NCBI GenBank assembly: GCA_964016885.1
Contig: CAXHJY010001240.1
Location: forward strand, 122,901-186,900
Direction: 5' to 3'
DNA length: 64,000 bases
Source: Eledone cirrhosa
Taxonomy: Eukaryota
Below the pieces are notes generated by a model, which was given only the letters and a program-made list of their open reading frames with translations, was not told the origin of the DNA and ran no database searches. How positions within the stretch are numbered: position 1 is the stretch's first letter; every line of letters starts with the position of its first letter. The position numbers were made by a program, and so were the translations under genes. Below, in pieces: positions 48,106 through 48,485 of the stretch.

Positions 48106-48485
48106 CTTGCTCTTATGTTAGTATGCGAACAGAACTGCAGACACTAATGTTTCTGGGTATCACCCTTCATTAGTACAGCTAACTGTTCACCTGCCAAACT
48201 GTCAGAGCTAGTGAAAATATATGCTATTTTCTAAAATATACAGTGACTGATCAGCCTGATTTGCATATTAGCAGTCAGGCTGATCAGTCAAATCTGCATA
48301 TTAGCAGATCCACTGATCAGATTCATGCAAATCAGGCCGATCAGTCACTGTATATTTTAGAAAAGAGCTTATATTTTCACTAGCTCTGACAGTTTGGCAA
48401 GTGAACAGTGAGCTGCACTGATGAAGGGTGATACCCAGAAACATTAGTGTCTGCAGTTCTGTTCACATGCCAACATAAGAGCAAG
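48106..48485. repeat. Fold-back element with 161-bp inverted arms (48106-48266 and 48325-48485)
   Basis: The arms are reverse complements with scattered mismatches. Confidence 0.9.
48412..48457 (+). ncRNA. Minimal type-I hammerhead ribozyme motif
   Basis: GCTGCA CTGATGA A GGGT-GAT-ACCC A GAAAC ATTAGT GTC TGCAGT. Stem I is 6 bp, stem II 4 bp, stem III short with a near-palindromic loop. GUC triplet at 48449-48451. Confidence 0.75.

Follow-up and report, generated by a model that had tools for sequence, protein, structure and literature searches.

A probable back-to-back non-LTR retrozyme copy in an ACIN1 intron of Eledone cirrhosa, with an intact hammerhead motif in its sense arm and a likely neutral G5A change in its antisense arm

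Metazoan non-LTR retrozymes are described, in the accessible text of two sources (PMC7229834; Li et al., 10.64898/2026.07.22.740005), as short protein-less tandem units that carry one type I hammerhead each, have a GC content under 45% and occur in thousands of copies as monomers and partial tandems; a mussel family comprises about 5,000 copies of 350-390 bp repeats (Cervera and de la Pena 2020, PMC7229834; Li et al., 10.64898/2026.07.22.740005). The element that we describe here, found in a window of 64,000 nucleotides of Eledone cirrhosa DNA (the whole stretch analysed), shares these properties, its GC content being 38%, but has a sequence of its own, a unit whose 438 bp come close to the upper limit given for such elements (150-450 bp), octamer and palindrome repeats upstream of the ribozyme and frequent head-to-head fold-backs, the word “inverted” being absent from the available text of PMC7229834; the family is known here from DNA copies. 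Fold-backs of this kind have been described for Penelope-like elements (PLEs). Indeed, an adjacent inverted, 5′-truncated copy is typical of PLE insertions, some clades of which are biased towards (TA)n (PMC8557442, as far as its accessible portion goes), and head-to-head repeats with palindromes at their junction have been ascribed to self-priming (PMC3846280, likewise). With the inverted pLTRs of PLEs, as those portions of PMC3846280 and PMC8557442 present them, the Eledone family has in common the 5′ truncation, the partial tandems, the adjacent inverted 5′-truncated copy, the head-to-head junction at palindromes and the microsatellite targets, the difference being that here no RT/GIY-YIG ORF lies in the unit or consistently beside it.

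Two further systems are relevant for comparison. The vertebrate intronic ribozymes (HH9, RF02275; Cpeb3) are also sense-strand motifs located in introns, and the present motif aligns to the core and helix I of HH9; the known ones, however, are conserved, whereas the present one is high-copy, drifting and predicted to be sequestered in a duplex. The frog Harbinger palindromic intronic repeats, in the part of PMC5625713 at hand, resemble the present element in folding on themselves into a long, near-perfect dsRNA with a short loop, and differ from it insofar as a retroelement origin is proposed here and the role of ADAR substrate is assigned by analogy.

The reading that we favor, with a probability of roughly 0.85, takes the ACIN1 element for a non-LTR retrozyme in back-to-back form that was likely inserted in the Penelope manner, with a ribozyme predicted to be masked in the ACIN1 pre-mRNA and an antisense G5A change that likely represents neutral decay. 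The features on which this reading is based are collected in Table 1.

Table 1. Coordinates (window numbering) of the ACIN1 segments and of the parts of the retrozyme copy
Feature	Position	Strand	Remarks
ACIN1 first coding exon, SAP domain	6156..6293	+	93% identity to cuttlefish ACIN1; Pfam SAP E 1.3e-10
3′ end of preceding ACIN1 exon, then GT	28241..28252	+	exact match to upstream loose end of spliced X4 contig
ACIN1 exon adjoining the element	47980..48071	+	29/30 residues to cuttlefish ACIN1; single copy in assembly; contigs of X1, X2, X4
5′ splice donor GTAAGA (GT 48072-73)	48072..48077	+	used in spliced X4 contig
Inverted, truncated retrozyme arm	48106..48320	-	unit about 83-297; 94% to unit from locus L038; 48106-48266 pairs with sense arm
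Antisense hammerhead core with G5A at 48171	48140..48173	-	
Hairpin loop and fold-back junction inside CTGATCAG-palindrome repeats	48267..48324	.	
ATGCAAAT octamer, inner end of each arm	48259-66 and 48325-32		
Sense retrozyme arm, unit positions 137-438	48325..48626	+	family-typical 3′ end
Type I hammerhead motif	48401..48467	+	core 48418-48451; predicted cut after 48451; near-palindromic helix III
(TA)n microsatellite at 3′ junction	48627..48657	.	same junction in most family copies

The arms of the hairpin (48106-48266 and 48325-48485) are complementary, without gaps, at 151 of 161 positions and are separated by a loop of 58 nt, three of the mismatches falling at 48120-48126. Counted from the ACIN1 donor at 48072, the hairpin lies 34 nt downstream, its first base being intron position +35. 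The element is longer than these arms, since its sense side reaches 48626 plus the (TA)n tail and its left arm extends to about 48320; expressed in unit coordinates, the sense arm comprises positions 137-438 and the antisense arm about 83-297. Unlike most double-armed copies, the left arm ends, at unit position 297, without (TA)n. Both arms share three subfamily variants and derive, therefore, from one template. Beyond the (TA)n tail there is a SINE-like repeat (48626-49000), which recurs at 23913-24243 within the gene and on contig C3.

The sense arm contains the elements of a type I core (C3-A9, G12-A15.1, U16.1, H17 and three helices), namely CTGATGA at 48418-48424, GAAAC from 48438 and GUC at 48449-48451, surrounded by helix I (48410-17/48452-59; 8 bp, extendable), helix II (48426-29/48433-36; 4 bp) and helix III (48441-43/48448-50; 3 bp, near-palindromic). 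When folded in isolation, the motif (48400-48468) has a predicted energy of -28 kcal/mol (z -4.35), a value equaled by none of 200 shuffled sequences, and its near-palindromic helix III looks compatible with activity as dimers. Helices I and III are longer than those of the minimal PLE hammerheads, whose motifs commonly have one extra base after A9 (PMC4209133); throughout the Eledone family there is an extra A on each side of helix II, forming an A·A apposition before G10.1-C11.1, so that this pair is present but flanked by A on both sides, and the second extra base is atypical with respect to the PLE motifs. The best hammerhead match in a local Rfam scan was HH9, with 13.9 bits (E 0.41) against a gathering threshold of 52, while a scan of the whole window yielded, among the 150 of 802 matches listed, microsatellite-driven miRNA matches only. 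On its minus strand the left arm has CTAATGA, a departure from the core at G5; the change (window 48171) is read from the assembly, since read-contig support for the locus ends at 48136. G5A is known to inactivate hammerheads. These data bear out a first-pass annotation of the window in its claims of a 161-bp hairpin 35 nt past an ACIN1 donor and of a CUAAUGA (G5A) core in the antisense arm; its claim of a complete core in the sense arm holds for CTGATGA, GAAAC, GUC and the three helices, but the annotation had overlooked the extra A flanking helix II on each side.

Concerning the host gene, the exon preceding the element (47980-48071) is single-copy in the 3.0-Gb assembly. In run X4, a 707-nt contig of depth 65 contains 47984-48071 flanked by sequence of other exons: on its upstream side it joins a sequence that ends at 28252 before GT and, downstream, it leaves the window after 48071 to enter a C3 sequence located behind an AG acceptor. 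Since it leaves exactly after 48071, the canonical donor is used in this transcript, X4 being taken as RNA from this spliced contig alone and its animal being one that may not carry the insertion. That X4 gives no cover at 48073-48099 and has no contig with the window base at 48171 is no evidence, because contigs drop rare forms, and A>G differences in its repeat contigs are indistinguishable from other genomic copies. A contig present in X1 and X2, which are one sample and possibly the assembly's own, spans 47830-48136 without substitution and covers the host-element junction at 48106.

The assembly and the read contigs differ by two indels in nearby ACIN1 exons. The assembled exon is, at 47983/47984, 14 nt shorter than both the X1/X2 contig and the spliced X4 contig, and translation of the assembled version meets a stop after five codons; the deficit is either an assembly error or a null allele. 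The next ACIN1 exon is found not on the window's contig, C1267, but on C3 near 231,438,640, on the minus strand (locus L110, about 1536-1518), where 9 nt are duplicated in tandem in comparison with the X4 contig; C1267 probably belongs near this C3 exon. The intron with the element is at least 15.9 kb long, the contig stopping at the end of the window. The cuttlefish ACIN1 model reads 54 residues past the same donor and has no match there in the window, which is weak evidence that the element may be lineage-specific.

The 34-nt core has 1,104 exact copies genome-wide, compared with 0 for the reversed control, and a genome search with the hairpin returned 3,542 first-look candidates, 40 of which were scored, giving 104 matches. 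Given the number of exact cores and the family divergence of 3.2% per site, some 3,300 arms with a hammerhead would be expected in the genome. The unit measures 438 bp and in tandem copies its tail runs straight into its head; accordingly spaced exact cores (437-444 bp apart, same strand) occur at 2 places among the first 100 matches listed. Two clusters of 3′ ends, mostly followed by (TA)n, are found around unit positions 405-411 and 430-438; the 5′ ends are ragged, and the monomer, if circular, is predicted to be 68% paired. Three repeats of 33 bp, containing CTGATCAG palindromes along with octamer motifs, lie upstream of the ribozyme in the unit and are seen in the window at 48247-48332 together with the ATGCAAAT octamers. 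By analogy, these repeats may possibly represent an snRNA-type promoter, for which newt satellite 2 offers a precedent.

The sequence attributes of a non-LTR retrozyme are thus found together: tandem units, each with its type I hammerhead, of a length (438 bp) inside the 150-450 bp bounds (tandem junctions at 9 of 26 loci), no protein and no LTR, the unit joining itself or (TA)n with no PLE ORF in line, and a high, dispersed copy number (1,104 exact cores) with GC below 45-50% (38%). A MITE was considered and rejected in view of the variable arm junctions, the tandem units and the one-sided preferred 3′ ends. By its sequence, then, the element is to be classified as a copy of a 438-bp protein-less, hammerhead-carrying tandem repeat, i.e., a non-LTR retrozyme. 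The family is apparently new to the literature; a search for a cephalopod retrozyme gave none among the matches listed, and cephalopod motifs may be contained in the supplements of PMC7229834 and 10.64898/2026.07.22.740005. Two more hammerhead-like sequences were observed in the genome, one being a tandem family with a 310-bp unit (locus L033, five matches 310 bp apart, minus strand) and the other a motif that is identical at two loci (L093, near 2308, and L103).

As to the mode of insertion, 30 exact-core loci were taken from the start of C1, which left 26 distinct ones once 4 duplicates had been removed; of these, 14 have a head-to-head junction, 9 a tandem junction and 7 a hammerhead in both inverted arms, it being understood that selection for exact cores over-samples double-armed loci. 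The head-to-head inversion is hence the usual insertion form of this family (14/26 sampled loci) and, after rough correction, the genome may hold several hundred double-armed loci. Many of the fold-back junctions may lie in the 33-bp repeat region with its CTGATCAG palindromes. Copies of the family display 5′ truncation, partial tandems, an adjacent inverted copy and a microsatellite target, as expected of a PLE-type insertion. No autonomous PLE, with an RT plus GIY-YIG ORF between pLTRs, was found in the window copy, nor was a recurrent junction between such an ORF and the unit found in 85 loci; PLE-like protein matches occur in 33 of these 85, many of them a short match of 19 residues, without a repeated in-line junction with the unit. 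The genome contains several RT and GIY-YIG PLE families, and at L037, L040, L064, L065, L081 and L085 RT/GIY-YIG fragments of several PLE-like families lie, in mixed orientations, within a few hundred bases of retrozyme copies, a proximity due either to shared targets or to template switching. The sequence of events that we propose is one in which a tandem or circular retrozyme RNA would be reverse-transcribed at a (TA)n target, likely by Penelope-type machinery, the inverted arm would be made by self-priming or by joining at the CTGATCAG palindromes, and both arms would then mutate at about 3% per site.

Is the pairing of an intact with a dead hammerhead more than chance? G5A is found in 23 otherwise exact cores, as compared with 27 carrying a control G-to-A change in loop III, and G5A was seen at 22 further loci, 6 of which are double-armed, with an intact core in the inverted partner arm in 4 of the 6; because of these two results G5A is probably neutral, as judged from the genomic copies. 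The 10 mismatches between the window arms are divided into 4 changes in the sense and 6 in the antisense arm, numbers that, per 161 nt, match the family rate, so that neither this split nor the G5A frequency gives any sign of constraint on either arm. Of 22 hairpin-like loci taken from the genome search 17 are double-armed, with both cores intact in 10, one in 5 and none in 2; independent decay would give 42% of one-intact pairs, more than the 5/17 observed, and in the exact-core sample all 7 hammerhead pairs are doubly intact, both samples having been selected for likeness. Core sites (G5 excluded) are mutated in 13 of 700 cases as opposed to 495 of 15,364 elsewhere (1.9% vs 3.2%, p 0.046), a deficit that may stem from base composition, the core being rich in A, which mutates less, or possibly from selection on the hammerhead core. 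The deficit at core sites and the shortage of one-intact pairs speak against chance, but on the whole the intact/dead pairing appears to recur at the chance rate and the “dead” antisense core is most likely the product of random decay.

Within the pre-mRNA, the left arm carries a hammerhead in reverse complement; therefore the state of its core is irrelevant and the antisense arm could not cut the pre-mRNA even with an intact core, the only effect of G5A being the conversion of one G-C into a G·U. The antisense arm is the first to be transcribed, and the emerging sense arm would zip with it into the 161-bp duplex. According to the predictions, forcing the hammerhead fold on 48100-48490 costs 72.8 kcal/mol, compared with 5.7 without the left arm, while the hairpin hardly alters pairing at the donor (48069-48079). 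Thus masked, the ribozyme would almost never fold, leaving the intron uncut and its splicing normal. Like other intronic inverted repeats, the duplex is likely, by analogy, an ADAR substrate and would probably be edited, with no consequence shown; the octopus is among the highest in hyper-editing of the species compared and frog palindromic repeats are heavily edited, as reported in the accessible part of PMC5625713, while the available text of PMC3846280, in which “editing” occurs 0 times, mentions no editing signature in PLE palindromes.

An ADAR footprint in the genomic copies was sought and rejected, since in ribozyme-sense orientation (174 arms from 85 loci, after dropping 24 duplicate/irrelevant loci and 14 polymorphic sites) A>G amounts to 0.91% and T>C to 1.28%, C>T and G>A dominating at about 3%. 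Other ADAR substrates may exist in the window, where 26 inverted pairs measuring 60 bp or more, the majority of them widely spaced, are found downstream of the ACIN1 start. Two segments, 50331-50996 and 57836-58501, form a 98% inverted pair, and ORF fragments at 2229-2899, 41792-42643, 50969-51538, 56317-56844 and 58500-60353 are, we presume, retroelement-like.

In light of these results, the suggestion of the first-pass annotation that the upstream arm masks the ribozyme as dsRNA agrees with the folding energies, whereas the possible competition that it raised among duplex formation, ADAR editing, self-cleavage and splicing gained no support, the predicted donor pairing being nearly unaffected by the hairpin and the one spliced contig using the canonical donor, and the intact/dead pair that it singled out is repeated at 4 of 22 other G5A loci, i.e., at the chance rate. 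Its fallback, a neutral PLE-type relic tolerated in a masked state, is the view supported by the family membership, the neutral frequency of G5A and the predicted masking.

The alternative that fares best, although we regard it as unlikely, is one of survivor bias, by which unmasked sense-strand hammerheads would cut their introns and be purged, so that the ACIN1 copy would persist only since its upstream arm silences it; the copy would be a relic in this case as well. It is compatible with everything seen; the predicted masking is very strong, fast but not slow intronic ribozymes impair splicing (Fong 2009, via the accessible part of PMC10919898) and retrozymes are depleted from Xenopus introns, as stated in the available text of 10.64898/2026.07.22.740005. 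Yet head-to-head forms are common anyway (14/26) and a single case shows nothing; furthermore, the motif may be a slow one, given the weak monomer cleavage of an axolotl motif whose helix II has a mismatch at its base (PMC7229834, in the portion at hand).

That the details of the locus, including G5A, are assembly errors is suggested by the exon indels (the 14-nt deletion and, in the next exon, the 9-nt duplication relative to the read contigs) and by the split of ACIN1 between C1267 and C3. We consider this very improbable: the X1/X2 contig, possibly from the assembly's own sample, matches 47830-48136 without substitution and includes the junction and the mismatches at 48120-48126, the architecture is common to many other loci, and, were G5A itself an error, the finding would only be weaker still.

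Equally improbable, in our opinion, is that fold-back insertion equips retrozymes with an antisense lock under which an intact ribozyme can reside next to the splice donor of an important gene, and which editing, in a cephalopod of very high ADAR activity, would open so that the intron is cleaved, hundreds of loci being latent switches. Those who would assign the ACIN1 copy a role in tuning ACIN1 output, with ADAR editing or folding kinetics freeing the ribozyme or altering donor use, may appeal to a 161-bp duplex with 98 adenosines placed 35 nt from the donor, to the hyper-editing of octopus and the heavy editing of frog palindromic repeats (PMC5625713, accessible text) and to the precedent of the intronic Cpeb3 ribozyme (PMC10919898, likewise). 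No sign of function was observed at the ACIN1 locus. Hammerhead catalysis requires the core adenosines. The regulatory role is the least credible of the possibilities, for neither arm shows a sign of constraint and G5A occurs at the control rate, the predicted donor pairing is unchanged and the X4 contig is canonically spliced, editing would also strike the core adenosines that the ribozyme needs, as expected from general hammerhead chemistry, and the cuttlefish model unmatched past the donor is a weak hint of a lineage-specific element.

The reading of a masked, neutrally decaying retrozyme copy adds a probable cephalopod family to the known non-LTR retrozymes, one that inserts with Penelope-type fold-backs, and this manner of insertion fits the PLE origin that has been proposed for retrozymes. 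Were a switch released by editing true, it would link cephalopod hyper-editing to the control of pre-mRNA by ribozymes. The ACIN1 copy itself shows nothing special; the coexistence, by the hundreds, of masked and unmasked copies of one and the same ribozyme would provide a set on which to test whether intronic hammerheads harm splicing and are purged.
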